Shown here: positions 8,910 to 25,550 of the stretch, piece by piece
Position numbering within the stretch: position 1 is the stretch's first letter
Layout of the letters: every line of letters begins with the position of its first letter
NCBI RefSeq assembly: GCF_032334135.1
Contig: NZ_JAVXUS010000005.1
Coordinates: forward strand, 158,618 to 190,617
Source: Halomonas sp. I1
Lineage (GTDB): Bacteria > Pseudomonadota > Gammaproteobacteria > Pseudomonadales > Halomonadaceae
DNA length: 32,000 nt
Direction of reading: 5' to 3'
Translations under genes and position numbers: made by a program
The notes under the pieces: generated by a model
Seen by the model: the letters and a program-made list of their open reading frames with translations, nothing else
Database searches by the model: none
Told to the model about the DNA's origin: nothing

Positions 8910-9020
8910 AGGACGCCGTCGGTGTTGACACCATGCCCTTTTGCGTCAGCCTGTGTTCGAACCTTTGGCCAGCTTGAGGTCCAAGGGGCGTCATATCACC
9001 ATTAATCAGGATGAACTGCC

Positions 9021-9794: not shown

Positions 9795-9806
9795 ACGCTA
9801 CGCGTT

Positions 9807-9846
9807 GTCTGAAAACTGGCCGTGCTCGCCCATCTCGTTTTCAGAC
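9807..9846. repeat. Perfect 10-bp inverted repeat with a 20-nt spacer in a convergent intergenic region
   Basis: GTCTGAAAAC (9807-9816) and GTTTTCAGAC (9837-9846) are exact reverse complements. Confidence 0.6.
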
Positions 9847-9871
9847 AAGACTTACTTGTCGATTTCCCCCC

Positions 9872-9900
9872 GGCCGGCCCAGGTGGCCGGCCATCTTGTG
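9872..9900 (+). terminator. GC hairpin terminator candidate after the META lipoprotein gene
   Basis: GGCCGGCC (9872-9879) and GGCCGGCC (9885-9892) are self-complementary around loop CAGGT. ATCTTGTG follows. Confidence 0.4.
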
Positions 9901-9943
9901 TCGGCCGCCCGGGACCCAGGCGTAGACACGGTGCGGACAATAT

Positions 9944-10663
9944 CTACGGCAATTCGCCGCCATGATACACATTCTGCACATCCTCCAGATCGTTGAGCAT
10001 GTCGAGCAGCTTCTCGAACAGGGCGACGTCATCGCCTTCCACCGGCGTGGTGGTCTGGGGCACGAACTGGATCTCGTCGACCTCGAACTCGAGCTCGCCG
10101 AAGGCGTCGAGCAATGACTGCTTGGCTTTGGCATATTCGGTGTGGGGCGCGAAGACAGTGATGCGTCCGTCTTCGTTCTCGATGTCGGTGACATCGACAT
10201 CGGCCTCCATCAGCGCTTCGAGGGTGCCTTCCTCATCGTCGCCGTCGAAGGCGAGAATCGCGCAGTGGTCGAACATGTGGCTGACGCTGCCGGGGGTGCC
10301 GATCTTGCCCTTGCACTTGGTGAAGCAGGTGCGAACATCGCCGATGGTACGGTTGGGGTTATCGGTCAGACACTCGACGATGACCATGACGTTGCCCGGG
10401 CCGAACCCTTCGTAGCGTGCTGGCGAATAGTCTTCGCCCCCCACGCCATTGGCCTTGTCCAGTGCCTTGTCGATGACGTGAGCGGGGACCTGAGCTTTCT
10501 TGGCGCGTTCGATCAGGCCGCGCAGCGCCAGGTTGGCGTGAGGGTCGCTTCCCCCCTGCTTGGCGCAGACATAGAGCTCGCGTCCGAACTTGCTGTATAC
10601 CTTGGTTTTCGCGTCGGCCGTCTTGGCCATGGATTCCTTGCGGTTCTGGAAAGCCCTGCCCAT
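9944..10663 (-). CDS. YebC/PmpR-family DNA-binding regulator (YeeN-like paralogue type)
   Basis: The product [71 protein letters not shown]...[24 protein letters not shown] is collinear with the YebC/YeeN family. Confidence 0.85.
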
Positions 10664-10818
10664 TGCGTTGTCCTGTTGCCTGGATTCTCGTGCGGGATTC
10701 TACGAAACCGCAGGAAATGGGAACAGTCTTATTTCGGCTTCCTGCAACGACCGCCTACACTGGGAAAGCTCGTGTGCCTCTCGGCATGCGGGGCCAGCCC
10801 AGTTGCCAGGAGCCCGCC

Positions 10819-12006
10819 ATGGACTATCAGGCCTACCGTCATGCCCTCGCCGCGACCCAGAAAGGGAGCGAGTTGCCATTCGCCCCGGAGGAGTTCGAGA
10901 CTCGCCGCCGCGAGGTACGTCGGCGAATGCGCGAGACGGGATTCGATGCCCTGCTGCTCACTGATCCGGCCGATCTGTACTACCTGACCGGCTATCACAC
11001 TTTCGAAGTTTCGGTACATGCCTGCCTGGTGGTGACCGAGCATCGCCTGGTGCTGCAGGTGCCATCGATCGAGACCGGGCCGGCGGTGGTTACCGCCATG
11101 GTCGATGAGATTCTCGGCTACCGTTGGGAGAGCATCGAGGAGGTCATCGAACCGCTGACCGAGACGCTGGCGCCGCATGCCGTCATCGGGCTGGATGCCT
11201 TCAACGCGGGACTGCGTTTTGGCGTGATCGGCGAGCTTCAGGCCAGGCTGGGAAGGGCGCGCTTCCGCCATGATGGCGGTGAGCTGCTCGATCGGGTACG
11301 GATCGTCAAGAGTGCGGCGGAACTCGAGTATCTGCAGGAAAGCGCCCGTATCACTTCCCTGGGACTGCGAGCGGCGGAGGCGATCATCGCGCCCGGCATG
11401 ACCGATAACCAGGTGGCAGCCGAGGGTGCCAGGGCCATGCTGGCGGCGGGAAGCGAGTTCATGAGCCTGCAGCCCATCGTCACCAGCGGGCGACGCATCG
11501 GGACCATCCACGTCAATCACAAACGCCAGATGATCGGGCCGGACGAGCCGGTGTTCCTGGAATTCGGGGCGGCCTTCCAGCGTTATACTGCGCCGATGAT
11601 GCGGACTGCGGTGGCGGGAGAACCAAGCCGCGAGATGCGTGAACTCGGCGAGCTATGCCGGACGCTTGGCGATACTCTGTGCACGACCATGCGGCCAGGC
11701 AATACGTTCGATGAGGCGGCACGTGCCGCCGAAGCGGTGCTGACGCCACATGCCGAGCGGGTGTTCTTTTCCGGGGTCTTCGGTTATGCCGTGGGCGCTC
11801 AGTTTCCGCCGAGCTGGGTCGAGGGAACGGGGTTCATTGCGCGGGGACAGGATCGCATGTTCGAGCGCGACATGGTCTTTCACCTCCCGCTGTGCCTGCG
11901 CCTGCCGGGGGAGTGGGGTATCGGGCTGAGCGATACCGTCAGAGTCACGCCCGAGGGTGGTGTGGCCTTGACCGATAATGATTGGACGATCGCCATGTCC
12001 TCCTGA
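10819..12006 (+). CDS. M24-fold (creatinase / Xaa-Pro peptidase / ectoine-hydrolase-like) hydrolase
   Basis: The ATG at 10819 is preceded by AGGAG. The creatinase-type N-domain (FDALLLTDPADLYYLTGYH) and the pita-bread C-domain (AELEYLQESARITSLG...MTDNQVAAEG...) are present. Expected metal-ligand positions look substituted (see findings). The track ORF start at 10663 is an extension. Confidence 0.75.
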   Translation: MDYQAYRHALAATQKGSELPFAPEEFETRRREVRRRMRETGFDALLLTDPADLYYLTGYHTFEVSVHACLVVTEHRLVLQVPSIETGPAVVTAMVDEILGYRWESIEEVIEPLTETLAPHAVIGLDAFNAGLRFGVIGELQARLGRARFRHDGGELLDRVRIVKSAAELEYLQESARITSLGLRAAEAIIAPGMTDNQVAAEGARAMLAAGSEFMSLQPIVTSGRRIGTIHVNHKRQMIGPDEPVFLEFGAAFQRYTAPMMRTAVAGEPSREMRELGELCRTLGDTLCTTMRPGNTFDEAARAAEAVLTPHAERVFFSGVFGYAVGAQFPPSWVEGTGFIARGQDRMFERDMVFHLPLCLRLPGEWGIGLSDTVRVTPEGGVALTDNDWTIAMSS

Positions 12007-12125
12007 GCGGACCAATGGCGACGTTTCTGGCGCGACCTCGGATCAGACTCTTGACCTCAAGTTAGGTTAAGGAATTATCTTGCAGGCTCGCATTGCCCGT
12101 CCTGTCTTCTTTCGAGAGCGTCGCT

Positions 12126-14024
12126 ATGTTCCGTTATTTCGAGAATCTGGTGAATCCCTACCCCGAGGGTGAACCTCGGGTACCCCCGCGAGGGCTACTG
12201 CCTTTCATCGTGCATTTTTCCCGGCCGGTGGCTGGCCTGTTGTTGGCCATGTCGCTGGCTACCGCCCTGGTATCGGCCGCCGAGGTGGTGTTCTTCCACA
12301 CTATGGGAGAACTGGTCGACTGGCTGTCCAGTGCCGAGCGTGATGGCTTCCTCGCCGAGCACGGCTGGCGCCTGGCCGGAATGGGGCTGCTGGTCGTCGT
12401 GGGGCTGCCCTTGCTGGTGCTGTTGCAGTCGTTGCTGACCCACCAGGGCATCTTCGGCAATTATCCGATGCTCGGTCGCTGGCTTTCGCACCGCCATATG
12501 CTGCGCCAGAGCATGGCATTCTTTCAGGACGAGTTTGCCGGTCGCGTGTCGCAGAAGGTCATGCAGACGGCATTGGCGATCCGCGAAACGGTCATGAAGC
12601 TGATGGACCTGCTGGTCTATGTGGCCGTCTATTTTACCGGGGCCATGCTGCTGCTGGGGAGTGCCGAGCCCTGGCTCATGGCTCCTCTGGTGGTGTGGCT
12701 GGCGGGGTACGTCGCCATCATGTGGTTCTTCGTGCCTCGGTTGCGTGATGTGTCCATGGCCCAGGCCGATGCCCGGGCGCGCATGACAGGCCGGGTGGTG
12801 GACAGCTACAGCAATATCCAGACCATCAAGCTGTTCGCCGATACCTGCCGTGAGCAGGCCTATGCGCGTGATGCCATGGAGGGGTTCATGGGCACCGTGC
12901 ACCGTCAGATGCGCCTGGCCACTCGGCTGTCGGTGAGCCTGACGCTGCTCAACTCACTGTTGCTCGTCGGCATCGCTGCGATGGCGGTGGGTGCCTGGTA
13001 TCTGGAGGCGGTGTCACTGGGCGTGATCGCGGTGGCGATCGGGTTGGTGATGCGTATTCGCTTCATGTCCGACTGGATTCTGTGGGAAGTGGCCAGCCTG
13101 TTCGAGAACATCGGGACCGTGCAGGACGGCATCAATACCATCGCGCGGACACCGGCGGTACTGGATTCGCCGGATGCCGGTGAGCTCGATGTGCCCCGGG
13201 GGGAGATTCGTTTCGAGGCGCTACGGTTCGGTTATGAGCTGCCCGATGGCGAGGCGCGCCGCGTCTTCGACGGCCTGGACCTGACCATCGCGCCGGGCGA
13301 AAAGGTCGGTATCATCGGTCGCTCCGGCGCCGGCAAGTCGACGCTGGCCAATCTGTTGCTGCGTTTCTACGACCTGGAGAGCGGGGCGATCTGCATCGAT
13401 GGCCAGGACATTGCCGACGTGACCCAGGAGTCGTTGCGTCGCCGCATCGGCATGGTGACCCAGGATACTTCGCTGTTGCACCGTTCGGTGCGTGACAATA
13501 TTCGTTACGGTAGCCCGGAGGCCAGCGAGGAGGCGATCGAGCGTGCGGTGCGCCAGGCTCATGCCGACAGTTTCCTCGATGACCTGATCGACCCCCAGGG
13601 GCGCCGGGGACTGGATGCCCATGTCGGTGAGCGTGGCGTAAAACTGTCGGGCGGACAGCGACAGCGCATCGCGATCGCTCGGGTCTTGCTCAAGAATGCT
13701 CCGATCCTGGTACTCGACGAGGCGACTTCAGCGTTGGACTCTGAGGTCGAGACGGCCATTCAGGAGCAGCTCTATGCGTTGATGGAAGGCAAGACAGTCA
13801 TTGCGATCGCACATCGCCTGTCGACCATTGCCATGCTCGATCGCCTGGTGGTGATCGATGAAGGACGTATCGTCGAGATGGGTAGCCACGAGCAACTGCT
13901 GGCGCGGAATGGGCTCTATGCCGCGTTGTGGCAACGGCAGTCGGGTGGTTTCCTGGGACTCGATGCCGCCTCGAGGGCCGCCGAGCGGGATGATCGTCAG
14001 CCCATGGAGACGGCGACGCCATGA
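12126..14024 (+). CDS. ABC exporter, fused permease/ATPase (MsbA-like type I exporter)
   Basis: The start is at MFRYFENLVNPYP. Six hydrophobic segments precede the NBD with Walker A GRSGAGKST, signature LSGGQRQRIAIARVLL, Walker B ILVLDEATSALD and H-loop IAHRLST. Confidence 0.9.
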   Translation: MFRYFENLVNPYPEGEPRVPPRGLLPFIVHFSRPVAGLLLAMSLATALVSAAEVVFFHTMGELVDWLSSAERDGFLAEHGWRLAGMGLLVVVGLPLLVLLQSLLTHQGIFGNYPMLGRWLSHRHMLRQSMAFFQDEFAGRVSQKVMQTALAIRETVMKLMDLLVYVAVYFTGAMLLLGSAEPWLMAPLVVWLAGYVAIMWFFVPRLRDVSMAQADARARMTGRVVDSYSNIQTIKLFADTCREQAYARDAMEGFMGTVHRQMRLATRLSVSLTLLNSLLLVGIAAMAVGAWYLEAVSLGVIAVAIGLVMRIRFMSDWILWEVASLFENIGTVQDGINTIARTPAVLDSPDAGELDVPRGEIRFEALRFGYELPDGEARRVFDGLDLTIAPGEKVGIIGRSGAGKSTLANLLLRFYDLESGAICIDGQDIADVTQESLRRRIGMVTQDTSLLHRSVRDNIRYGSPEASEEAIERAVRQAHADSFLDDLIDPQGRRGLDAHVGERGVKLSGGQRQRIAIARVLLKNAPILVLDEATSALDSEVETAIQEQLYALMEGKTVIAIAHRLSTIAMLDRLVVIDEGRIVEMGSHEQLLARNGLYAALWQRQSGGFLGLDAASRAAERDDRQPMETATP

Positions 14025-14173
14025 TACGCGAGTCAAGTCACTCGAGTGCTGTTACCGATAAACCCCAGTATGGCTTCAGTCCGGCGGTGGCCATGCGTGG
14101 TCTGGCCGAGCCCGAGTGGTTGATCGAGCTCGTGGCCGAGGCCGTGCTGGAGGAAAACGACATGTTGCCGTGA
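14021..14173 (+). CDS. Candidate 50-codon ORF translationally coupled (ATGA) to the ABC exporter gene
   Basis: It is not in the ORF track (under 60 aa). The ATG at 14021 overlaps the exporter TGA (14022-14024). The product is MIRESSHSSAVTDKPQYGFSPAVAMRGLAEPEWLIELVAEAVLEENDMLP. The last ~30 codons are almost all G/C-ending, like real genes here. Confidence 0.3.
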   Translation: MIRESSHSSAVTDKPQYGFSPAVAMRGLAEPEWLIELVAEAVLEENDMLP

Positions 14174-14278
14174 TCGGCCAATGGGCATTGCGAGTAGTAC
14201 GGTTATGCCATCCATGCTGGGTCTCTGTTCGTTTGGAGGCCTTTTTGTATTCAGACCTCACCGATACCGGGAGCCATC

Positions 14279-14563
14279 ATGTTTCAGCATCCCAGCAATC
14301 GTCTTGACGATCCCTTGACGCTCAAGATTGGCCACGAAGAGCTGGTGATCCGTCGGCGCTACGAGACCCTCAGCATCGCCAATGATTTCCTTATCGCCAT
14401 CTGGTTTCTGGTTGGCAGTGTGCTCTTTCTCTATCCAAGCCAGGAAACCCTGGCGGTCTGGATGTTTATTATCGGCAGTTTCCAGTTTTTGGTGCGCCCG
14501 GCGATTCGCCTCGCCAGCCATATACACCTTCAGCGGATTCCTGATAGCGAATGGCAGAAATGA
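14279..14563 (+). CDS. Small two-TM membrane protein, YrhK-like
   Basis: The 94-aa product contains RRRYETLSIANDFLIAIWFLVGSVLFLYPSQETLAVWMFIIGSFQFLVRPAIRLASHIH. Two TM segments and the GS..F / RP.IRL pattern resemble the YrhK family as I recall it. Confidence 0.55.
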   Translation: MFQHPSNRLDDPLTLKIGHEELVIRRRYETLSIANDFLIAIWFLVGSVLFLYPSQETLAVWMFIIGSFQFLVRPAIRLASHIHLQRIPDSEWQK

Positions 14564-14689
14564 GAGATCAATGATGGGGCGATATGATGAGCACTGTTGT
14601 CGAGCTTTCTTTGCGGATATGCCAAAGGGGCCGTGCTTATGAAGAGTAGGCTAAGTGATCGCCGTTTTTATTCTGAGAGATAGACCTTG

Positions 14690-15000
14690 TTTTTGTAGGA
14701 AATATCCTCATTGATGTGGGGGGTACGACGTCTTTGCTTTTAGGTCTGGATGATGAGGTGCTTCCTGTAAGGTTTTTCCGTTGGTGATCGTTGTGTTTGT
14801 CAATGATAATCAGGGGGTGGTGGTGTCCATTATGTGGATAGTGTAATGAAATGTTTGTAGAGTGTCTTGGTTGGTCCGAAAATATTTCGGCAGGATTGAT
14901 GTGATGGTATGAGGTTTTGTGAACTATTGTGAAACAGTGTTGCTGTTTAGTGGTTGTTTAATAGATAATTCTTCTGTATTAAGATCGCGACCTAAATCAT
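14690..15000 (+). promoter_or_regulatory. C-depleted G/T-rich non-coding leader upstream of pgaA
   Basis: My manual count for 14701-15000 is T 115, G 87, A 65, C 33 of 300. No credible ORF is present. Confidence 0.5.
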
Positions 15001-15005
15001 CTTCG

Positions 15006-15030
15006 AATCCGTCATGGAAGACGGATTTTT
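15006..15030 (+). terminator. Hairpin plus T-run in the pgaA leader (attenuator, sRNA 3' end or CsrA-type site)
   Basis: AATCCGTC (15006-15013) pairs with GACGGATT (15020-15027) around loop ATGGAA. The T run spans 15026-15030 and then GG follows. Confidence 0.4.
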
Positions 15031-15204
15031 GGTGATTGTCACACCGTCCTGACGAGCCGTTGCATGAACAGATGGCGTTGTATCCAGTAGAGGAATTTTT
15101 CTTCGTATTGGTCTCGCCTTATAGCAGCAAGGAATTCTCGTTAATGGGCCTTTATTGGCATAACCATTGACGTGGGGCTCCATCGGACAGGCCAGTCGAA
15201 ATAC

Positions 15205-17256
15205 ATGTATATCACTGTACAGAGAAAAGGTAGCCTTGGCCGCCGTTGTCGGTTCGTTGGCTTAGTGTGTGGACTTTCATTTTGTACTATCGGTGCCGAA
15301 GCAGCCGATGACCAGCGTCTGGAAAAACTGCTCGAGGAAGCCACCGCTGAGCGCCATGAGCGTCAATGGCGCTCGGCATTGGCGCTCTATGAACGCGTGC
15401 TTAGGCTGGACCCAGATCATGATACGGCGTATCGCGAGCGTACTATCACCCTGTCATTGCAGGGTAGTGCCGGTCTAGCCTGGCATTATTATCAGCAACG
15501 CCCGGAGCTTTTCAATGCCGATGAGGCGAGTGGCTTCGAGCAGGACTATATCGCGCGACTCGCCGTATGGGGTAAGTTGCCGAGCAAGCCTTCCAACGAT
15601 GACATGACCCGCGCCTTGGAGGCTCAAGAGGCGTTTCTGACTCACCGGGACGGTGAAGTGCCGGTGCGTCAACGTTTCGATCACCTTTACATTCTCCACG
15701 GTTTACGCCGCCACGAGAAGGTTGTCGATGGCTATCGGAAACTGACGGAGGATGACATCGATATCCCACCTTATGTCTTGCGCATTGCCGGCGACTCCTT
15801 GTTGGCCATGCGGGAGCCTGAAAGTGCCGTTGAGGTGATGGAACGGGTCGTCGATGCCGACGTGGCGACCGCCGATGACCATGTCCTCCTGGCCTATGCC
15901 TATCTGGAATCCGGGCGTTGGCAAGAAGCGCTTCGGCATCTCGAACTCGAAGCCGAAGAGGAACGTGCCTGGTTGTGGGAGAGGAAGGCCCGACAGCCGC
16001 ATTCCAACTGGAATCGCTATTTCCTGGATTCGACTCTGGCGATGATCCGCAGTTATACGGGCGATCAACCGGAGGCCCAGGAGCGCCTGGAGACAATGGC
16101 GGGCATCGGGCCTCGCAATGCGGGGGTGCAGGCCAATCTAGGTAACCTCTATCTCCAGCGTGGCTGGGAGGACCAGGCGTTGACGCGCTTTCAGATTGCG
16201 ACCCGCCTCGATCCGAGCTTGCCGGATGGCTGGGTTGGTCAGGTCGATGCCCTTGCGGAGAAGCAGCGGGTGGGCGAGGCTCGCCAGGCGATGCAGCAAG
16301 CGATACGCCTGGCAGCCGGCTCGCCGCGGGTAGAACAGATGCGGCGAGACTGGCGGACCCGTACCGGCTGGCGTGTCAACGTCTCGACCGTGGCGGGACA
16401 CAGTGACGCGCCGAGCGGCGCGAACTCACCAACGGGCTCCGATGAGCAACGCCACCATCTTGCAGCATGGTCGCCCTTGCTGGGAGATCGCTGGCGGCTT
16501 GGCCTCCTGGGAAGCGAGCAGGCCATCGACTTCCACGGTGAACGCGTGCATGACACTCGCGGTGGGTTGGGCCTGCGTTATGCCCGGGATCGGCTATCGC
16601 TCGAGTCTCGTCTCGAGCGCAGCGACGATGCCTTTTCCCGCGATACGGCCTTCATGTTCGAACTGGACTGGCGCATCAACGAGACTCTGGACACCAGGGT
16701 GCGTTATGCCACGCACAGCCGCGAGGGCTCCCTGCAGGCACATGCTTCGGGCATTACTGCCGACCAGGCCCAGGTCGGCATCGACTGGTCGCCGAATGAG
16801 CGTCGTACCTACCAGGCTTCCGTTACGCAGATGGACTACTCGGACGGCAACCGTCAGGAAAGTCTATCGCTGAGTGGGTGGCATCGCTTGATGGATACCC
16901 CCGATGAGGCTCTCGGCCTGAGCCTCGAGCTCCACGCGGACCAGGCCAGTGATCCCGACACTGCTTATTTCAGTCCCGAGACCAGCGCTTCCTGGGAGCT
17001 CGGTGCGCTCTGGGAAGCGCGCACCTGGCACCGCTATGAACAGCACTTCATCCAGGATTTCGGCGTTAGTGTCGGTCAATCCTGGCAGCAGGAATACGGC
17101 GCGGACTGGGTTCCGACGCTGAGCTACCGACATCGATGGGGGATCGGAAACGGCCGGGATCTCCAGTATGGCGTGTCCTGGTCACGCCCCGTCTACGACG
17201 GTACACGTGAGACCCATCTTAGCTTCGATATTGGCATCACCTGGGGAGAACAATGA
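15205..17256 (+). CDS. pgaA: PNAG export porin PgaA (TPR domain plus beta-barrel)
   Basis: Signal peptide MYITVQRKGSLGRRCRFVGLVCGLSFCTIGAEA/ADD. TPR-like repeats are present (ALALYERVLRLDPDHDTAY, GNLYLQRGWEDQALTRFQIATRLDP). The C-terminal half is beta-strand-rich. It is the first gene of a pgaABCD-ordered cluster. The start is uncertain (GTG 15172, ATG 15205 or a downstream TTG). Confidence 0.85.
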   Translation: MYITVQRKGSLGRRCRFVGLVCGLSFCTIGAEAADDQRLEKLLEEATAERHERQWRSALALYERVLRLDPDHDTAYRERTITLSLQGSAGLAWHYYQQRPELFNADEASGFEQDYIARLAVWGKLPSKPSNDDMTRALEAQEAFLTHRDGEVPVRQRFDHLYILHGLRRHEKVVDGYRKLTEDDIDIPPYVLRIAGDSLLAMREPESAVEVMERVVDADVATADDHVLLAYAYLESGRWQEALRHLELEAEEERAWLWERKARQPHSNWNRYFLDSTLAMIRSYTGDQPEAQERLETMAGIGPRNAGVQANLGNLYLQRGWEDQALTRFQIATRLDPSLPDGWVGQVDALAEKQRVGEARQAMQQAIRLAAGSPRVEQMRRDWRTRTGWRVNVSTVAGHSDAPSGANSPTGSDEQRHHLAAWSPLLGDRWRLGLLGSEQAIDFHGERVHDTRGGLGLRYARDRLSLESRLERSDDAFSRDTAFMFELDWRINETLDTRVRYATHSREGSLQAHASGITADQAQVGIDWSPNERRTYQASVTQMDYSDGNRQESLSLSGWHRLMDTPDEALGLSLELHADQASDPDTAYFSPETSASWELGALWEARTWHRYEQHFIQDFGVSVGQSWQQEYGADWVPTLSYRHRWGIGNGRDLQYGVSWSRPVYDGTRETHLSFDIGITWGEQ

Positions 17257-19145
17257 TGGCGGCTATCATCGCCAAGTGTTGGAAATCCACGATGCTTTTT
17301 CTGGGTCTGGCCATGATGACATGGCCTGCTGTCGCGGCATCTGCTACTGGGCAGAACGTGTTGACGATCCTTTGTTATCACGATATTCGCGACCAGGTAG
17401 CCGATAGTGGCGATGCGGACCTCTATGCGGTCAACACCGAGCGTCTGGTCTCCTTCTTCGATTGGCTTCGGGAAAGCGAATTTAACGTCGTCAGCCTGGA
17501 CCAGGTGGTCGCGGCCTCCGAAGGGGAGAGAGCGTTACCAGAAAACCCGGTGCTGCTGACCTTCGATGATGGTCTGAAAAGCGTCTACACCAAGCTGTTC
17601 CCGCTACTTCAAGCTTATGACTATCCCGCCGTAGTGGCAGTGGTCACCAGTTGGGTGGAAAACTCGGACACTGAAGTGGAGTACGGGGCAGAGATATATA
17701 CCGAAGATGATTTCATGACGTGGGATCAGATTCGTGAAATAAGCGATTCTGACCTGGTGGAGATCGCCTCTCACTCCCACGACATGCATCGTGGTGTGCT
17801 AGCTAATCCCCAGGGTAATACCATGGCGGTGGCGGTAACCCGAGAATACTCGATGGGAGACGGGCAGTACGAGGATGATGATGTCTATCGGCAACGGGTA
17901 CGTGAGGATTTGGCGCGTAGTGCCGAGTTGATCGAGGCTCACACTGGCAAGGCGCCGCGTGCCGTGGTGTGGCCCTATGGCGAATACAATCGGATTACCA
18001 ACGAACTGGCTGAGGACGTCGGTATGCCAGTCACTTTCGGCCTGCAGGGAGCGTCGCAGCCATTTCATGAAGGCATGCCGTTGGCAGGATTGGAACGCTA
18101 CCTGATTTCCGATAATCCATCCCTTTCTGACCTAGCCGGCAAGATGAGGTTGCCGGTACCACCTACAAAGCGCATCGTCCAAGTCGATCTGGATTACGTC
18201 TATGATAAGGACCCGAAGCAGCAGCGGCGAAATGTCGATGCACTGATCAGTCGCATGTACCGGCTACAGCCGGATTATATCTTTCTGCAAGCCTTTGCCG
18301 ACCCAGATGGCAATGATGCCGCCGATGCGGTGTATTTCCCCAACCGTCATATGCCGATGCGTGCTAATCTGTTTAGCCGCGTGGCATGGCAGCTCTATAC
18401 ACGCGCCGATGTTGAGGTTTTTTCTTGGATGCCGGTGTTGGCATGGCAATTGCCGGATCCCCAACAACGTGAAGCGCTTTCATTACCAAGCCCCGAGCCG
18501 GGAGAAGTATTCAGGCTTGATCCGACCAATGTCGAGGCGAGGCGCATCATTGCTGAAATTTATGAAGATCTCACGGCGTCCAGCTGGGTATATGGCCTGC
18601 ATTTTCATGATGATGCCCAGCTGCGCGAGACGGAGCTACCTGCTCTCCACCCCGGTGACCCGCTGGCTCGGAGCCAATATCTGATCGATTTTACCCAGGA
18701 ACTGAAACATGCAGCGGGGCGCAACCGATCCAAGTTGAAGACGTCTCGCAACCTTTATCCCATGCCGGTACTGAAACCAGAGAGCCGTAACTGGTTTGCC
18801 CAGGATCTCGATCAGTTCTTGGCAGCCTATGATTATATCACGTTGATGGCCATGCCTTGGCTTGAAGGCAGCAATACCCCTAAACAGTGGCTCGAGTCGT
18901 TGGTCGATGCCGTACGCCATCATCCGGGGGCGATGGATAAAACGATCTTCCAGCTCCAGACCGTTGACTGGCGTACGAACAGCCGAACTCCCGGAGATGA
19001 GCTACCTGATTTGATGAGCTTCCTGGAGTCTCTGGGCGTACGTCACCTCGGTTACTATCCGGATGATTTTATCCTCGATAGGCCTCCGTTGCCTGAGGTT
19101 CGGCCAGTGATATCTCGCGACAATTTCCCTTACCTGAAGGAATAG
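17253..19145 (+). CDS. pgaB: PNAG N-deacetylase PgaB
   Basis: ATGA overlap with pgaA and GGGGAG as SD. Motifs include YHDI, VLLTFDDGLKSVYTKLFPLLQAYDYPAV, EIASHSHDMH, VVWPYGEYN, DLDYVYD, LQAFADPDGN and FSRVAWQL. These are collinear with E. coli PgaB. Confidence 0.93.
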   Translation: MMAAIIAKCWKSTMLFLGLAMMTWPAVAASATGQNVLTILCYHDIRDQVADSGDADLYAVNTERLVSFFDWLRESEFNVVSLDQVVAASEGERALPENPVLLTFDDGLKSVYTKLFPLLQAYDYPAVVAVVTSWVENSDTEVEYGAEIYTEDDFMTWDQIREISDSDLVEIASHSHDMHRGVLANPQGNTMAVAVTREYSMGDGQYEDDDVYRQRVREDLARSAELIEAHTGKAPRAVVWPYGEYNRITNELAEDVGMPVTFGLQGASQPFHEGMPLAGLERYLISDNPSLSDLAGKMRLPVPPTKRIVQVDLDYVYDKDPKQQRRNVDALISRMYRLQPDYIFLQAFADPDGNDAADAVYFPNRHMPMRANLFSRVAWQLYTRADVEVFSWMPVLAWQLPDPQQREALSLPSPEPGEVFRLDPTNVEARRIIAEIYEDLTASSWVYGLHFHDDAQLRETELPALHPGDPLARSQYLIDFTQELKHAAGRNRSKLKTSRNLYPMPVLKPESRNWFAQDLDQFLAAYDYITLMAMPWLEGSNTPKQWLESLVDAVRHHPGAMDKTIFQLQTVDWRTNSRTPGDELPDLMSFLESLGVRHLGYYPDDFILDRPPLPEVRPVISRDNFPYLKE

Positions 19146-19149
19146 ACCC

Positions 19150-20403
19150 ATGGTCGGTGACGTGATCGAGGCTATGCAAGCATTTGCCTTTCTCTATCCT
19201 GCGGTCATGGCGATTTTCTGGATGGGAGGAGGACTCTACTATTTTATGCGAAATGAGCGGAATGCTGGAAACGTGGATGCGCCTCCCTTGATCGAAAATG
19301 CGCCGCTGGTTTCCATTCTAGTGCCTTGCCACAATGAAGGGGATAACATTGACGAGGTGATCGAGACGTTGTTACTGCAGCACTATCCCGATTTCGAGAT
19401 TCTTCTGATCAATGATGGTAGTACCGACAATACCGCCGAATACCTGGACCGCTTGTCTGCACATCATGAACAAGTGCGGGCCATGCACCTGGATCGTAAT
19501 CTCGGAAAGGCGAATGCCCTGCGCATGGGAACCTTGGCAGCCCGCTCGGAATTTTTGGTCTGCATCGATGGTGATGCCTTGCTGCACCCCCATGCCGTGA
19601 CCTGGATGGTGGCACCGATGCTGGAGGACGCCCGGATCGGCGCCGTGACGGGAAATCCCCGTATCCGTAACCGTTCGACCCTGCTCGGCAAGCTTCAGGT
19701 CGGGGAATTCTCCTCGATCATCGGTATGATCAAGCGCACCCAGCATGCTTACGGCCGATTGTTCACCATCTCCGGTGTGATCTGTGCATTTCGCAAGCAG
19801 GCTTTGCACCAGATCGATTACTGGTCCACCGATATGCTGACCGAGGACATCGATGTCAGTTGGCGGCTGCAGATGGCCAAGTGGAGCCTCCGTTATGAGC
19901 CCCATGCGCTCTGTTACATCCTGATGCCCGAGACCCTTAAAGGGCTCTGGAAACAGCGCTTGCGCTGGGCAAGAGGGGGTTCTGAAGTGGTGTTGCGCTA
20001 CTCCCGTCGCATCGTGATGCCCGTCCAGTGGCGCATGTGGCCACTGTATTGGGAGTATCTGACGAGCTTGGTATGGGCCTATGTCATGGTTGGTCTCATG
20101 TTGCTGTGGGGTGTCGGCCTGTCCGGCGTCTTGCCCGAGAATTGGCCGTTGGCTAGCCCTTTTCCCCGTCTCTATGGTTTGTTGTTGGCACTCATCTGCC
20201 TCGGGCAGTTCTTCATCAGCATGCTCATCGACTCTCGATACGAACCCAAGGTAGGGCGCCATTACTACTGGTTGATCTGGTACCCACTCGCCTACTGGAT
20301 CATCAGCCTTTTCACGACGCTTGTTGCCTTCCCACTGACACTGTTTCGCCGGCGCGGCAAGCTTGCAACCTGGTCCAGCACCGATCGAGGATACAAACCA
20401 TGA
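19150..20403 (+). CDS. pgaC: PNAG synthase PgaC (GT2 family)
   Basis: Motifs include VSILVPCHNEGDNI, LINDGSTDNT, VCIDGDALL, GAVTGNPRIRNRSTLLGKLQVGEFSSIIG, TEDIDVSW and LWKQRLRWARGG (QxxRW). These are collinear with E. coli PgaC. Confidence 0.95.
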   Translation: MVGDVIEAMQAFAFLYPAVMAIFWMGGGLYYFMRNERNAGNVDAPPLIENAPLVSILVPCHNEGDNIDEVIETLLLQHYPDFEILLINDGSTDNTAEYLDRLSAHHEQVRAMHLDRNLGKANALRMGTLAARSEFLVCIDGDALLHPHAVTWMVAPMLEDARIGAVTGNPRIRNRSTLLGKLQVGEFSSIIGMIKRTQHAYGRLFTISGVICAFRKQALHQIDYWSTDMLTEDIDVSWRLQMAKWSLRYEPHALCYILMPETLKGLWKQRLRWARGGSEVVLRYSRRIVMPVQWRMWPLYWEYLTSLVWAYVMVGLMLLWGVGLSGVLPENWPLASPFPRLYGLLLALICLGQFFISMLIDSRYEPKVGRHYYWLIWYPLAYWIISLFTTLVAFPLTLFRRRGKLATWSSTDRGYKP

Positions 20404-20885
20404 ACGCTATCATTGCGTTACCACGACGCCAGAAGACCGCCATCATGATGGGATATAGCTTTTTCACACTCTGTGCCTGGTTGGGGTATGGTTACCTGCT
20501 GTTTCCCATGGTCGTGCTCATCATCGAGTGGCTCGAACTGCACGGATGGCACTCGTCATCGGCATTCCGGGTACCGCTCCAAGGAGGCGGTAGTCTGTCG
20601 ATTCTACTGCCGATGGCGGGCAGTGCCCTGGTCGCTTTCGTCTGCTGGGCGGAGTGTAGGCGGCTGCTATTGCGCTGTCGTAAACGGATGTACCAAGGCG
20701 AGCCTCTGTCACGGGAGTTACTTGCCAAGGCCATGAAGGCGTCGCCGGAGCTTGCCATGGCCATGATGCGGACCAAGAGGGGCATACTGCATATGGATCA
20801 ACATGGCATGCCGTTGAGATTGGCTCAAACGGTTTACCAGCGGGAAGCCACACCCGACGATCCGAGTGAGGTCCTGGTCTCCTGA
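20400..20885 (+). CDS. pgaD: PNAG synthase accessory subunit PgaD
   Basis: ATGA overlap with pgaC. The product has two N-terminal TM helices. The C-terminal tail (LSRELLAKAMKASPELAMAMMRTKRGILHMDQHG) parallels the E. coli PgaD tail ([30 protein letters not shown]). Confidence 0.8.
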   Translation: MNAIIALPRRQKTAIMMGYSFFTLCAWLGYGYLLFPMVVLIIEWLELHGWHSSSAFRVPLQGGGSLSILLPMAGSALVAFVCWAECRRLLLRCRKRMYQGEPLSRELLAKAMKASPELAMAMMRTKRGILHMDQHGMPLRLAQTVYQREATPDDPSEVLVS

Positions 20886-20914
20886 ACGATGTTCATGTCT
20901 TGGGAGGATGGAAG

Positions 20915-21088
20915 ATGGTTCGGGTGGCTGCTAGTCTACCACCTATCTTCGCAAGTGCTGTTTTGATGCTATCGGTTGCATTGTCGGCCGGTTGTTGTAT
21001 AGACCTCGAAATCAAGACGTCCAGCCAGCATCGGAATCGGCGGGAGTCATGGCGACGAATGAAGACGGTAGCGTATATATGTTCTTGA
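20915..21088 (+). CDS. Candidate 57-aa lipoprotein
   Basis: The ATG at 20915 lies 6 nt after GGGAGGA. The product is MVRVAASLPPIFASAVLMLSVALSAGC..., which carries lipobox LSAGC. No family was recognised. Confidence 0.35.
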   Translation: MVRVAASLPPIFASAVLMLSVALSAGCCIDLEIKTSSQHRNRRESWRRMKTVAYICS

Positions 21089-21098
21089 CCATGGAATC

Positions 21099-22070
21099 AT
21101 GACCATGCCCCTGAGATTGGTTCACCCCCAGGGGGGAGGGGCCGAAGTTGTCAACACCGAGTCTTCACTCGTGGAAATTTCCGAGATTGCGTTTGTCAGC
21201 GCAGGGACGGTATGCCGGGGGAGACTCTTTGCGCCACGCGGAGGGGAGGGGAGAGCCACTCTGGTAATGGCGCATGGCCTGGGCGGAACTCTGGGCGCCG
21301 GCTTGGTCGGCTTCGCCGAGCGCTTGTCGCAGGCTGGCATCAGAGTGGTCGCTTTCGACTACCGCTTCTTTGGTCAGTCCAACGGCAAGCCACGTCAATT
21401 GGTGTCCATTCAGGATCAGCTTACCGACTGGCAAGCGGCCTTGACCTTCGCCCAGCGTCTTGACCCGAAGGCTCCCCTGGTATTGTGGGGGACCTCCCTG
21501 TCGAGTGGCCATGTGCTGACACTGGCCTCCGAACTACGCAATATCGCGGCCGTGATCGCTCAGAATCCCATGGTAGACGGACGGGCGTCGATACTCGCCC
21601 AATGTCGAAGCGTGGGCCTTTCTCAGACGCTAAGCGTCGCGAAAGCCGGCCTGGAGGATCTGGCTCGGGGATGGTTCGGACGTGACCCGCTGGTTATCCC
21701 CATTGCCGGCGAACCGGGGCGTCTCGCGGCCCTGACTACCCCAGGGGCACTGTCAGAACTCCAGTCCATTGCCCCGGAGCACTTCGTCAACGCCATATCC
21801 CCCAGGGTATTACTCTCTCTCGGGTTCTATCGTCCGGTCCGACGCGTTTCTCGAATTCGCTGCCCGGTGCTCCTGCAGTTATGCTTGCATGACGCTGTCA
21901 CGCCAGTTGAAGCCGGTTATCGAGCTGCCGCCAGGATTGGAGCCCTCGCGACCGTCAAGACCTATGATGTCGGTCATTTAGATATCTATCGTGGTCCCGC
22001 CTTCCAGGACGTCGTCATGGATCAACTCAATTTCCTGGGAGCTCATCTTCCCGGTTCATGCGCACAGTAA
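21099..22070 (+). CDS. Alpha/beta-fold hydrolase
   Basis: VMAHGLGG (oxyanion region), FDYRFFGQSNG and nucleophile elbow LWGTSLSSGHV, with a C-terminal D...H (YDVGHLDIY). The substrate is unknown. Confidence 0.75.
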   Translation: MTMPLRLVHPQGGGAEVVNTESSLVEISEIAFVSAGTVCRGRLFAPRGGEGRATLVMAHGLGGTLGAGLVGFAERLSQAGIRVVAFDYRFFGQSNGKPRQLVSIQDQLTDWQAALTFAQRLDPKAPLVLWGTSLSSGHVLTLASELRNIAAVIAQNPMVDGRASILAQCRSVGLSQTLSVAKAGLEDLARGWFGRDPLVIPIAGEPGRLAALTTPGALSELQSIAPEHFVNAISPRVLLSLGFYRPVRRVSRIRCPVLLQLCLHDAVTPVEAGYRAAARIGALATVKTYDVGHLDIYRGPAFQDVVMDQLNFLGAHLPGSCAQ

Positions 22071-22096
22071 GATGCGGATGGATGGGCGCCACTGAC

Positions 22097-22128
22097 ATGT
22101 CTGGCCATATGGTTGGCCAGACATTTTT
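22097..22128 (+). terminator. Rho-independent terminator after the hydrolase gene
   Basis: Perfect 11-bp stem ATGTCTGGCCA (22097-22107) / TGGCCAGACAT (22114-22124) with loop TATGGT. The T run spans 22124-22128. Confidence 0.75.
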
Positions 22129-22166
22129 ACTTGCAGCGGATTCCTGACACCGAGTGGTAGAAGTGA
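22116..22166 (+). pseudogene. Diverged remnant of the 3' end of a yrhK-like gene
   Basis: GCCAGACATTTTTACTTGCAGCGGATTCCTGACACCGAGTGGTAGAAGTGA aligns without gaps to 14513-14563. My hand alignment gives about 40 of 51 identities. It translates ARHFYLQRIPDTEW*, against ASHIHLQRIPDSEWQK* in the intact gene. Confidence 0.6.
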
Positions 22167-22417
22167 ACTATTCTGACATTCAGGGGGGGGAGCGGAATGT
22201 CAAGAAGATTTTACGGAGTATGCTGTAGTCTGTAGCTGACATTTCGAGTGACTCTAGGGTGCGGTAAGCTAGTGTTGATCAGGCTTACAGTACCCTTGAG
22301 CCAAAAGGCGGGAGATAAATTGAAGTGAACCCCATGCATATTATCAGGGAAACGCTCGATAATGCGCCCGGCACTACGCAGTGCAGTGATCGACACGCAC
22401 GGGGCATGGCGTCGTGT

Positions 22418-23143
22418 ATGAGCAAGAAACTACTTTTGGGTACCACACTTGTGATGTCGTTGATGTTGAGTGGTTGCTCGGGGATGGGCGGCGGTGATGG
22501 TTTTCCCGATCCGAATGACGCCTACATGCAGGGCGGAACCCTCGAAACATCGCGTGCGATCCAGACGGTTCAGCCTAGCATGACCAAGGATCAGGTCCGG
22601 GACTTGCTGGGGAATCCCCATTTCTCCGAGGGGCTGATCAACGTCCGGACCTGGGACTACCTGTTCGATCTCAGTGACCACGGTCATCTGGGCAGCATGA
22701 TGTGCCAGTTTCAACTGACCTTCGATGGGGCGATGCGCGTCGAGGAGACGCGGTGGCGAACGGCCAAGTGTGCCACGCGCTATTCGACCATCCAGGCCGA
22801 GCCGATTGAGAGCGCTGGCATGGTGCAGCACTATCACCTTCCCGTTGCTGGTACGTTCGCGGAGGATGGGACCTTGACCAATGATGGACGGCAGGTGCTG
22901 GAAGAGTTTGTACGGGTTCTGCAGCGCGATTTCCTCGACCCCACGCTGGCCATCGGCAGCTATCCGGAACCGGGTCGGTATCGAGTACAACGTCAGGTCG
23001 TTCAACGTTTTCTGAAGGCTCGGGGCGGGGTGTCGGCCGACAAGGTGTCGCTCACCTCGGAGACCGTCTCACCATGTCGAGGCATCAACAGCGCCGATGC
23101 CTGTAGGGGGGGGCGGGTCGTTATCGGGATTCGTGAGCGTTGA
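22418..23143 (+). CDS. Lipoprotein with BamE(SmpA/OmlA)-like N-domain and degenerate OmpA-like C-domain
   Basis: Lipobox LMLSGC. MTKDQVRDLLGNPHFSEGLINVRTWDYLFDL...CQFQLTFDG is typical of BamE-like/OmpA-family lipoproteins. The C-terminus (VSADKVSL...PCRG...ACRGGRVVIGI) is OmpA-like, but the central motif looks eroded. An ATG at 22406 is an alternative start. Confidence 0.65.
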   Translation: MSKKLLLGTTLVMSLMLSGCSGMGGGDGFPDPNDAYMQGGTLETSRAIQTVQPSMTKDQVRDLLGNPHFSEGLINVRTWDYLFDLSDHGHLGSMMCQFQLTFDGAMRVEETRWRTAKCATRYSTIQAEPIESAGMVQHYHLPVAGTFAEDGTLTNDGRQVLEEFVRVLQRDFLDPTLAIGSYPEPGRYRVQRQVVQRFLKARGGVSADKVSLTSETVSPCRGINSADACRGGRVVIGIRER

Positions 23144-23165
23144 GGGAAGCAACGTTCGGCGACGG

Positions 23166-25550
23166 CTACGCGTTGGCTTCGTTCTCTGCGGCGTCTTCCT
23201 CATCACTCTCATCGGCAAGGTCCGGCTGTACCGGGAACATCAGCAGGAAGTGGGTACCGACGTTCTCGGTGCTCCGGCACTCGATGGTGCCGCCGTGCCG
23301 TTCCACCACTGATTTCACCAACGACAGACCCAAGCCATAGCCCGCTGACAGGCTGGCGCCGGAGCTGCGCTGATAGCTGTCGAAAATATGCGGTAGATCC
23401 TGTTCGGGAATACCGACCCCCTGATCCTGGAGCTCGAGTGTAATACCGTGTGTTGTCTCCCTGGCCGTGATCGATACGCAGGTATCGGGTGGGCTGTACT
23501 TGATGGCGTTATCCAGCAGATTGAACACCGCCCTCAACAGGTAGGCGCGATCGCCCTCTATCGGGCACTCGTCTTCGGCATCGCAGTCGATGGTGATGGA
23601 CCGCTGTTGTGCTGCCGGCCAGGCTTGATCGACGGCCTCCAGAATCACGTCGGAAAGCAGCACGAAGTCCTCATTCATGGCACCGAACTCGATCTTCGTC
23701 AGTTGCATGAAACTGTCCGTGAGCGTCAGAGCGTTGCGCGCCTGCTGCGCCACACGGTCGAGTAAATCGTCTTCGGACAACGGGGATGACGAGGAGCGCT
23801 GCAGATGAACCAGGGCCAGGATACTGGACTGCGGGGCTTTCAGGTCATGGGACAGGAAGCGCAGCAGGCTGGCACGCTGCTCTTCCGCCTGTCGTTCGCT
23901 GGTGACATCCACTAGTCCGATCAGCCAGCCAACCTCGAAGTCGTCGACAGCGGTAACCAGCTGAGACACCTTGAGATGGTAATGGCGCTCGTCACTGCCC
24001 TTGTAGAGGGAGTCGTCGAGCGCTCCGAGTCCATTGCTATCGTCTCCGCCGTCTTGCCCGGCGATGGCCCGCCCCTCCGGGATCATGACATCCAGCAGGT
24101 CTTGGATCGTACCTCTGTCGTCGATTCGGTAGCGCTGGAGCAGTTGCTTGGCCTGGGTGCTGGGCAGAATGATATGGCCTTGCATATCCACCACCAGGGT
24201 GGCGATGGGCAGTGAATTCATCGAGTCGGTAATGAATCGGCGCGTGTTCCGGATGCGAGTGATGGCACGCTCGAGGGCACGGAGACGCTGATGTAGAACG
24301 AGCCCCCACTCCTTCGTCTGCTCGGGAGCTGGTTCCGGAACGATGCTGGGTTCATCCTCGAGGCGTCCGATCTCCTGTTGGAACCAGCGCAACGCCGTGG
24401 TCTGGCTACGCCAACTGATGAGAATGCAGGCCGCGAGAACCGAACAAAGGCTGACCGTCGGGGGCCACCACCAGCCAGCGGCCAGCAATCCCCAGGTACA
24501 GAGCAGTACCATGACCAGGACGGCGAGTGTCAGCTTGGCCATGTACCGGAACTGGAATACCCAGACCAAAGCCATGAAGAGCAGCAAGGGGAGCGTGGAG
24601 AGCGCCGAAGATGCCCAGGCGGGAAGGTCCTGAATGATGTCGCCTTGTAGTAGCCCGCCCAGCAGGTTGGCCTGTATCTCGATGCCTGGCATACCCCCGT
24701 CGGCGCCACCGAAAGGGGTTGGATGGCGATCCCCCAGGCCCTTGGCCGTGGCGCCGATCATGACGATGCGACCCTCCAACAAGGAGCGGGGCAGTCGCCC
24801 TTCGAGGATATCGACGTAGGAGACGCGAGGATAGTGGTATGTTGGGCCTCGGTAAGGGATGCGGACGTCGATGTCGCGGTTGTCACCGGCCAGGAGGCGT
24901 CGAGTGGTATCGGAGGGTGTCGTGTGATTCCACGCTACCAGGTCCTCGTAGAGTCGCAGCGTCAGTTGGGGGGTGTGATTTTCCCGCAAATGAATACGGC
25001 GTACGACACCATCGAAGTCCGCCCTGATATCGATATGACCGATGCCGCCAGCCGCATTGCGGAGAGGGGCGATCGGTGGCAGGCGACTGGAATCCGCTGA
25101 GAGTCCATTGTTCTGCACATGGATCACGGGCAGGAAGGCATGACCATGACGCTCCAGAGCCCGGGCCAGGCGCTGGTCCTGGTGTGGCTGGCGTGCGGGT
25201 TCGGCAAACACCACATCGAATAGCACGGCGCTGGTGTCGGCATCGGCCAGGCGATCCAGCAGGCCCGCGTGTACGTCGCGCGGCCATGGCCACTGGCCTA
25301 ACGCTTCCAGACTGCGTTCATCGATGGCCGCGATCAGAATATCGTCACTTGGCGACAGTGTCTGAGTCGTCAGCAATCGGTCATAGATATAAGCATCGGT
25401 GAACCAGGAGCGTTGCCCTGCCCACCAAGAAAGCACCACCAATAGGATGCCGATCAATAGCCAAGTTTGGGTCAGACCACGAAAAAGACTATGGCTGGCG
25501 TGCGGCACCTTGCCTCCCGGAGGCCACGACGGTGGAGTCCACGGCATCAT
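23166..25550 (-). CDS. CHASE2-domain sensor histidine kinase
   Basis: An N-terminal TM segment is followed by CHASE2 (DDILIAAIDERSLEALGQWPWPRDVHAGLLDRLADA...VLFDVVFAEP) and three TM helices. A PAS-like block, the H-box LRFLSHDLKAPQSSI, the N-box LLDNAIKYSP, G-boxes DQGVGIP and GYGLGLSLV, and an acidic tail follow. An alternative GTG start at 25508 has GGGAGG 4 nt upstream. Confidence 0.88.
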   Translation of the reverse strand: MMPWTPPSWPPGGKVPHASHSLFRGLTQTWLLIGILLVVLSWWAGQRSWFTDAYIYDRLLTTQTLSPSDDILIAAIDERSLEALGQWPWPRDVHAGLLDRLADADTSAVLFDVVFAEPARQPHQDQRLARALERHGHAFLPVIHVQNNGLSADSSRLPPIAPLRNAAGGIGHIDIRADFDGVVRRIHLRENHTPQLTLRLYEDLVAWNHTTPSDTTRRLLAGDNRDIDVRIPYRGPTYHYPRVSYVDILEGRLPRSLLEGRIVMIGATAKGLGDRHPTPFGGADGGMPGIEIQANLLGGLLQGDIIQDLPAWASSALSTLPLLLFMALVWVFQFRYMAKLTLAVLVMVLLCTWGLLAAGWWWPPTVSLCSVLAACILISWRSQTTALRWFQQEIGRLEDEPSIVPEPAPEQTKEWGLVLHQRLRALERAITRIRNTRRFITDSMNSLPIATLVVDMQGHIILPSTQAKQLLQRYRIDDRGTIQDLLDVMIPEGRAIAGQDGGDDSNGLGALDDSLYKGSDERHYHLKVSQLVTAVDDFEVGWLIGLVDVTSERQAEEQRASLLRFLSHDLKAPQSSILALVHLQRSSSSPLSEDDLLDRVAQQARNALTLTDSFMQLTKIEFGAMNEDFVLLSDVILEAVDQAWPAAQQRSITIDCDAEDECPIEGDRAYLLRAVFNLLDNAIKYSPPDTCVSITARETTHGITLELQDQGVGIPEQDLPHIFDSYQRSSGASLSAGYGLGLSLVKSVVERHGGTIECRSTENVGTHFLLMFPVQPDLADESDEEDAAENEANA

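Follow-up and report, generated by a model that had tools for sequence, protein, structure and literature searches.

A foreign pgaABCD–hydrolase cassette inserted at the 3' end of yrhK in a Halomonas lineage

The block between yrhK and a lipoprotein gene

We analysed a 32,000-nt stretch of the genome of Halomonas sp. I1 (3,937,892 bp, 63.6% G+C), positions 158,618–190,617 of contig NZ_JAVXUS010000005.1 (the window, with coordinates counted from its first letter), in which a pgaABCD operon for poly-N-acetylglucosamine (PNAG) and an alpha/beta hydrolase gene stand between yrhK and the gene for a BamE-domain lipoprotein (Table 1). The four pga genes are all present in canonical order with Pfam matches, and PNAG as the product is predicted from the genes alone; PgaA, for which the gene call at a sister locus gives 682 aa, scores 332 bits against TIGR03939, under the equivalog cutoff of 366.65 (NCBIfam). 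An earlier reading of the letters and their open reading frames (ORFs; the sequence-only reading) had described this gene content, pgaABCD and a hydrolase with no integrase or transposase, and the Pfam and NCBIfam searches bore it out. The gene upstream of the block is intact: its product matches the YrhK family PF14145 at 89.6 bits (Pfam cutoff 26.1) and is 70–94% identical to its orthologues in congeners.

In five congeners, the orthologue of the lipoprotein gene comes straight after yrhK and the genes on both sides are the same, which is the empty site that had been predicted from the sequence. These are genomes G015 and G019 together with three that we name from the source labels of their YrhK homologues: H. 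elongata (G021), H. eurihalina (G044) and H. almeriensis (G058). Only the window and a sister locus, L151, carry the block at this site. When the window is compared with the empty site of H. elongata, similarity is lost at the yrhK stop codon (14563) and comes back at 22103, from where it passes through a second copy of the yrhK tail and continues into the intergenic region and the leader of the lipoprotein gene, both homologous to those of H. elongata. The inserted block is therefore 14564–22102, 7539 bp in length, and it is an insertion at the exact 3' end of yrhK. Both the empty sites and the contiguity of the second tail copy with native intergenic DNA uphold the proposal, made from the sequence, of an island in the end of yrhK bracketed by the gene's own tail and an orphan copy of it.

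The two tail copies, a proximal one within yrhK (c1) and a distal, non-coding one (c2), form the largest direct repeat found by a repeat finder in the 10-kb region (14500–14563 against 22103–22166; 64 nt, 73% identity, spacing 7603). Each copy was also slid along the whole genome on both strands, and its partner, at 47/64, was the only match of at least 40/64, the runner-up reaching 36/64; the repeat is thus real rather than a product of chance. The sequence-only reading had placed it correctly behind the hydrolase gene and had translated both tails correctly, but the similarity starts about 11–13 nt upstream of the start given there. The yrhK stop codon marks the exact end of both copies (14563 and 22166), and homology of c2 to yrhK upstream of 22103 did not rise above shuffled controls.

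The tail of the c1 type reads CTCGCCAGCCATATACACCTT. The conserved C-terminal motif of the YrhK family, IRLxSHxHLQRIP, is present in c1 and in 120 homologues, and is broken in c2 by replacements of R by W and of H by Y, plus a stop codon. Even so, the first 31 nt of c2 share 25 positions with H. elongata yrhK (24 for the same part of c1), from which we conclude that they are a yrhK homologue and not a chance similarity. Translated, these 31 nt would encode AIWLARHFYL, where R and F are found in other YrhK lineages, and W and Y replace residues that are near-invariant among the 120 homologues.

Table 1 Features of the yrhK–pga locus (window coordinates)
Feature	Position	Strand	Evidence or remark
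ABC exporter	12093–14024		Upstream neighbour of yrhK
yrhK, 94 aa, intact	14279–14563	+	Pfam PF14145; insertion target gene
Proximal repeat copy c1	14500–14563	+	5' part 14500–14530, core 14531–14563
Inserted block, 7539 bp, 56.2% G+C	14564–22102	+	Absent from five congeners
AT-rich pgaA leader and promoter region, 608 bp, 42.8% G+C	14564–15171	+	
pgaA, TPR and beta-barrel export porin	15172–17256	+	PF21197, 1.3e-40; start uncertain
pgaB, deacetylase and GHL13 domain	17253–19145	+	Pfam
pgaC, GT2 synthase	19150–20403	+	Pfam
pgaD	20400–20885	+	PF13994; TIGR03940 53.4 bits, over cutoff 31.45
Small ORF with lipobox LSAGC, doubtful gene	20915–21088	+	No Pfam match
Alpha/beta hydrolase	21099–22070	+	PF12146 and PF00561
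Predicted intrinsic terminator of the pga–hydrolase operon	22097–22129	+	11-bp perfect stem, 6-nt loop, T5
Distal repeat copy c2, orphaned non-coding yrhK tail	22103–22166	+	Core 22134–22166; in-frame TAG 22158–22160
Native intergenic DNA and lipoprotein gene leader	22167–22417	+	Homologous to DNA past the H. elongata yrhK stop
BamE-domain, TpgA-like lipoprotein gene	22418–23143	+	PF04355; native downstream neighbour of yrhK
CHASE2 histidine kinase	23166–25550	opposite	

Several further observations concern the genes of the block and its surroundings. The small lipobox ORF is open in the window and at L151, and is interrupted by stops in the related cassettes of two other genomes (G299 and G354). 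Among NCBIfam families, the hydrolase comes closest to UilS-type lactonases, with a score below threshold, and an exact-protein look-up of it found no record; Rfam at the gathering threshold gave no match in the window. For the lipoprotein gene, we place the start at the ATG at 22418 (lipobox LSGC), rather than at the GTG of the long ORF at 22325. Its product has a weak, sub-threshold match to the NCBIfam family TpgA, the peptidoglycan-associated partner of trimeric autotransporter adhesins, which fits the giant adhesin gene lying farther downstream. Upstream of yrhK, the ABC exporter gene is absent from G019 and H. almeriensis (loci L012 and L046), in which yrhK stands directly after the orthologue of the gene at 10663–12006, so that gene content varies on both sides of yrhK. 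The tree of the flanking CHASE2 kinase resolves only the clade of the window and L151 and that of G019 and H. almeriensis. Divergence from H. elongata (locus L010) at fourfold-degenerate sites is 15–26% in the left-flank genes (9000–14563) and 37–38% in the right-flank genes (22418–25550), and yet both flanks have diverged equally from L151; codon constraint may differ between the flanks, or recombination may long ago have left a boundary here. Two candidates for further insertions, at yrhK in G017 and at the lipoprotein gene in G045, were rejected as unrelated contexts without a recombinase, and an ATGATGG similarity between the DNA after c1 and the intergenic region of H. eurihalina was judged to be chance.

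Foreign origin, age and decay of the insertion

A lower G+C content of the block, which the sequence-only reading had noticed in part of the lines, is confirmed: the insert has 56.2% and the cassette genes 57.3%, compared with 60–62% in the flanks and 63.6% in the genome. Codon composition deviates as well. In G+C at third codon positions (GC3), the five main island genes fall at the 5th–21st percentile of 1774 long genomic ORFs, and the small ORF (taken as 20900–21088) at the 1.7th; in codon-usage fit the same five genes lie at the 4th–20th percentile, against the 47th–56th for the flanking ABC gene.

The relatives of the cassette also lie outside the genus. PgaB is found in nine of 60 congeners, always elsewhere in the genome and at 41–46% identity, and both H. 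elongata and G019 combine an empty yrhK site with pga loci of their own elsewhere (43–44% identity); a PgaA search of 116 Halomonas genomes gave nothing at E <= 1e-30. A close cassette occurs in only two of 342 Halomonadaceae genomes, G299 and G354, which belong to another genus and whose matching proteins carry the names Halomonas sp. TD01 and Vreelandella alkaliphila. Identities to these two are 68–70% for PgaA, 72–74% for PgaB, 82% for PgaC, 53–57% for PgaD and 62–64% for the hydrolase, and their cassettes (L149 and L150) have the same gene order in a different chromosomal context. There the cassette G+C, about 50–52%, matches the surroundings, as does the 66% of the cassette in Halomonas sp. 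V046 match its flanks. The block in the window is thus compositionally and phylogenetically foreign to the genus, and the PNAG synthesis genes of this Halomonas lineage are a recent horizontal gain.

Within the Halomonadaceae pga subfamily (L149, L150 and L152/L153), the hydrolase is a fixed partner 3' of pgaD, and in Halomonas sp. V046 a GNAT acetyltransferase gene stands between the two. A scan of GTDB species genomes with PgaB gave no close donor; Luteimonas came nearest (52–54%), and the pga loci there had neither yrhK nor a hydrolase adjacent. Among plasmids, the whole insert matched only conserved pgaB and pgaC segments on megaplasmids, and the cassette was not found.

The second occupied site, L151, is an 18-kb contig found by protein search through its PgaA (P0122, 92% identity), and it has the gene order of the window: ABC exporter, yrhK, pgaABCD, hydrolase, lipoprotein and CHASE2 kinase. 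Flanks and island are alike in their nucleotide identity to L151 (93.5–93.8%), and fourfold-degenerate sites have diverged by 13.6% overall, with 8–20% in the island genes and 16–17% in the flanking genes. Since island and flanks are equally diverged, there was one insertion, younger than the separation from H. elongata and older than that of the window and L151 lineages.

With two occupied sites, the changes in each repeat copy can be counted from that split onwards. In c1, one of 64 positions has changed; in c2, nine of 64 have (four on the window branch, five on the L151 branch), and they fall in both halves. The c2 figure equals the neutral rate (13.6% at fourfold-degenerate sites), indicating that c2 is non-functional as coding sequence and that yrhK is under selection. 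This overturns one claim of the sequence-only reading, which had taken the protein-like differences between the copies as coding divergence that preceded the orphaning. The orphan at L151 reads ...GATAGCGAATGGC.GAAGTGA and lacks the GAT/GAC, S/T, GAA/GAG and CAG/TAG differences, so that GAC, ACC, GAG and TAG are recent substitutions in the window lineage, acquired at the neutral rate. As a lesson of method, changes that look protein-like when a gene end is compared with its orphan can be plain neutral decay; here only the second occupied locus exposed it.

By polarising the differences between window and L151, we reconstructed the ancestral c2, which mismatches c1 at 12 of 31 positions in the 5' part and at one of 33 in the 3' part (Fisher p = 4e-4). 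Decay after the split was uniform along c2, and the contrast between the two parts therefore dates from the insertion itself. At insertion, the block was flanked by a perfect or near-perfect 33-nt repeat (14531–14563 and 22134–22166), preceded by 31 nt that were about 61–65% identical. Having been essentially identical at insertion, the last 33 nt offer no distinguishable surrogate 3' end supplied by the element, and this part of the original proposal falls away. The differences in the 31 nt upstream of the core suggest two different yrhK alleles.

Two details of the comparison with L151 stand apart. At repeat position 46 (14545 and 22148), GAT and GAC are swapped, the window having T in c1 and C in c2 and L151 having C in c1 and T in c2, a pattern explained either by homoplasy at this silent site or by a small exchange of sequence between c1 and c2. 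In the pgaA leader, a C-poor, G/T-rich tract (14670–14947 in the window, 3220–3446 in L151) could not be aligned by blastn, the rest being 93.6% identical, and it keeps its base skew in both (C at 29 of 278 positions in the window and 19 of 227 in L151); it looks like a hypervariable tract of constrained composition.

The orphan also contributes to a predicted terminator. At 22097–22124, 27 nt past the hydrolase stop codon, an 11-bp perfect stem with a 6-nt loop is followed by TTTTT, and this hairpin is the top terminator-like site of the 9-kb region (−20 kcal/mol, z = −5.4). Only the first six bases of its 5' arm, ATGTCT (22097–22102), lie outside c2; the rest of the hairpin (the last five bases of that arm, the loop and the 3' arm) belongs to c2, as does the T tract. 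At the same place native yrhK has only a 5-bp palindrome (GGCCA...TGGCC, z = −0.4), and the L151 hairpin is weaker, at −12.3 kcal/mol, with an interrupted T tract. In the window, the 5' half of the orphan thus forms the predicted terminator of the pga–hydrolase operon. In c1, two copy-specific changes (14503 C>G with 14512 G>C) complement each other and turn the native GGCCA(N6)TGGCC into GGCGA(N6)TCGCC, so that the 5-bp stem within the yrhK coding sequence (14500–14515) is kept despite both.

Possible routes of entry

A two-part repeat of this kind is the expected leftover of a single crossover in the longest identical stretch of two homeologous copies, which favours a Campbell-type integration of the cassette at the 3' end of yrhK, with the crossover in the last 33 nt; we give this reading an even chance. 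The common ancestor of the window lineage and the L151 organism gained the foreign pgaABCD–hydrolase cassette after the split from H. elongata, on this reading with incoming DNA that carried a diverged yrhK tail just 3' of the hydrolase gene and that we infer to have been circular or to have borne an attachment (att) site. One reciprocal crossover within the last 33 nt of yrhK (CAGCGG...CAGAAATGA) would then have produced, from left to right, native yrhK with its unchanged tail c1, the leader, pgaABCD, the hydrolase gene and a hybrid orphan c2, made up of 31 nt of the incoming yrhK-like arm and the 33-nt core and followed by native intergenic DNA. Since the insertion, yrhK has stayed intact under purifying selection and the orphan has drifted neutrally. 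Host RecA working on about 33 nt of identity may have been the catalyst, or else a site-specific recombinase that acted in trans or was later lost.

A number of observations weigh against this account. For RecA-dependent recombination, 33 nt is short, and no integrase, transposase or relaxase was found with Pfam in any ORF of 14564–22102; nor does the gene list of L151 include a recombinase. Around the cassettes of G299, G354 and V046 there are no yrhK-like fragments or flanking repeats, and nothing in these related cassettes shows that the cassette owned a yrhK-like attachment site. Among 342 Halomonadaceae genomes there is no second insertion at a yrhK tail, and only the window genome has two tail matches. 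The ancestral reconstruction rests on two occupied loci. Finally, lineage-specific changes number six in the last 54 nt of yrhK against nine in the other 204 nt (Fisher p = 0.09), and such an excess in the 5' part of c1 would fit c1, rather than c2, as the imported copy.

This last observation leads to an alternative modelled on prophage e14 at icd, which we consider unlikely, though less so than the other rivals. Here the crossover would have taken place at the 5' edge of the repeat, at the GGCCA...TGGCC palindrome (14500–14515); c1 past the palindrome would be a surrogate tail borne by the element, c2 the displaced native tail, and the last 33 nt would have been homogenised by gene conversion shortly before the split from L151. 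The similarity does start exactly at a palindrome of the kind bound by recombinases, the lineage-specific changes of c1 form a mostly synonymous cluster at 14512–14530, the 5' part of c2 is as near to H. elongata yrhK as that of c1 (25/31 against 24/31), and there is a precedent in e14 itself, in which the icdC pseudogene lies at the end opposite to icd (PMC13626634, citing Hill et al. 1989). However, 32/33 beside 19/31 then calls for the extra conversion event, and the short stem lineage would have to accommodate all six changes unique to the 5' part of c2, where a hand estimate from fourfold rates expects 1.6–3.8. The excess of c1-specific changes is non-significant at p = 0.09, native yrhK tails differ from one another by about 18–20% as well, the block has no integrase, and repeated use of the attachment site was not found in the 342 Halomonadaceae genomes.

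Improbable, in our judgement, is homology-facilitated illegitimate recombination of a linear chromosomal fragment from another bacterium, its left end anchored in or upstream of yrhK and its right end joined at a GGCCA microhomology in the recipient tail, which would have been left behind as c2. No integrase is necessary for such an event, in keeping with the gene content, the right junction falls on GGCCA (22103), a short shared motif rich in G+C, and the mechanism is a documented one that has been put forward for the orphaned 3' regions of displaced effector and Rhs modules (PMC5361080). The donor, however, must already have held the foreign cassette right behind a Halomonas-type yrhK, a perfect 33-nt block beside a 61%-identical one is not predicted, and no breakpoint is visible when divergence from H. 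elongata is followed along the left flank.

It is very hard to credit that the block is ancestral and that each of the five empty-site species lost it by recombination between the repeat copies: such deletion is precise and leaves a tail indistinguishable from a never-occupied site, but with occupancy confined to the clade of the window and L151 it would have to have happened several times independently (in five species, including the most divergent pair, G019 and H. almeriensis), and it sits poorly with cassette G+C and GC3 below those of the genome, with only 43–44% identity to the pga loci that H. elongata and G019 have elsewhere, and with 3' cores that were still 32/33 identical at the recent split of window and L151. 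Insertion as a transposon or insertion sequence is rejected, there being no transposase, a 64-nt repeat with a 33-nt core in place of a 2–14 bp target duplication, and, in the output of the repeat finder, no inverted repeat pairing the block ends.

Returning to the Campbell-type integration, a bolder version of it, which we regard as doubtful, would make the cassette an integrase-free mobile unit that carries its own copy of the target, the yrhK tail, with the tail doubling as terminator. If this were true, the cassette could loop out through its two tails and enter genomes with a similar yrhK by a single RecA crossover, spreading among the Halomonadaceae. Only if such recombinase-free mobility holds true would the locus point to a new mechanism, and the idea is testable.

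Comparison with known systems

Whichever route was taken, the locus is a natural example of a complete biofilm-polysaccharide operon that entered at a gene end and left the gene undamaged, documented by the empty sites, the sister locus and an orphan that can be dated, and the cassette landed beside a neighbourhood of adhesin and biofilm-sensing genes. The operon itself is like pgaABCD of Escherichia coli and other Proteobacteria in its genes, their order, their domains and the long AT-rich leader; it differs in that it belongs to a Halomonadaceae subfamily in which a hydrolase is fixed 3' of pgaD, and its PgaA stays under the NCBIfam equivalog cutoff.

As an insertion, the block resembles e14 and phage 21 at the 3' end of icd. 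In e14, icd extends into the prophage and a C-terminal pseudogene, icdC, stands at the other end (PMC13626634, citing Hill et al. 1989). The likeness lies in an intact gene with a homologous C-terminal pseudogene at the far end of the insert, and a further likeness is that the two copies differ by few, largely silent changes (PMC13626634). Unlike the yrhK block, which has no recombinase gene and a polysaccharide operon as cargo, e14 is a prophage that encodes an integrase and still excises. The icd repeat is about 165 bp, and the yrhK repeat, 64 nt with a 33-nt core, is shorter.

Similarities extend to type VI secretion system (T6SS) effector–immunity arrays and to the orphan modules of Rhs and contact-dependent inhibition (CDI) systems, where foreign DNA enters beside a conserved gene, the old 3' end is moved downstream and mobility genes are absent (PMC5361080). 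Such orphaned ends have been attributed to homology-facilitated illegitimate recombination (PMC5361080, citing de Vries & Wackernagel 2002 and Meier & Wackernagel 2003). In contrast to the yrhK end, which is duplicated with a sharply bounded identical core, in these systems a variable 3' toxin domain is exchanged and its immunity gene retained.

A general class that comes close is that of integrase-less islets, such as decayed islands at tRNA genes or gene ends. With them the yrhK block shares direct repeats at both ends, related genomes in which the site is empty, a composition unlike that of the host and a cargo of adaptive genes; unlike islets in general, part of its orphan in the window also forms the predicted terminator of the operon. 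To our knowledge, the tail of yrhK, a gene for a small membrane protein, has not previously been described as an integration site. The yrhK block is an integrase-less islet at a gene end, a clean but ordinary one, and it leaves the established mechanisms uncontradicted.

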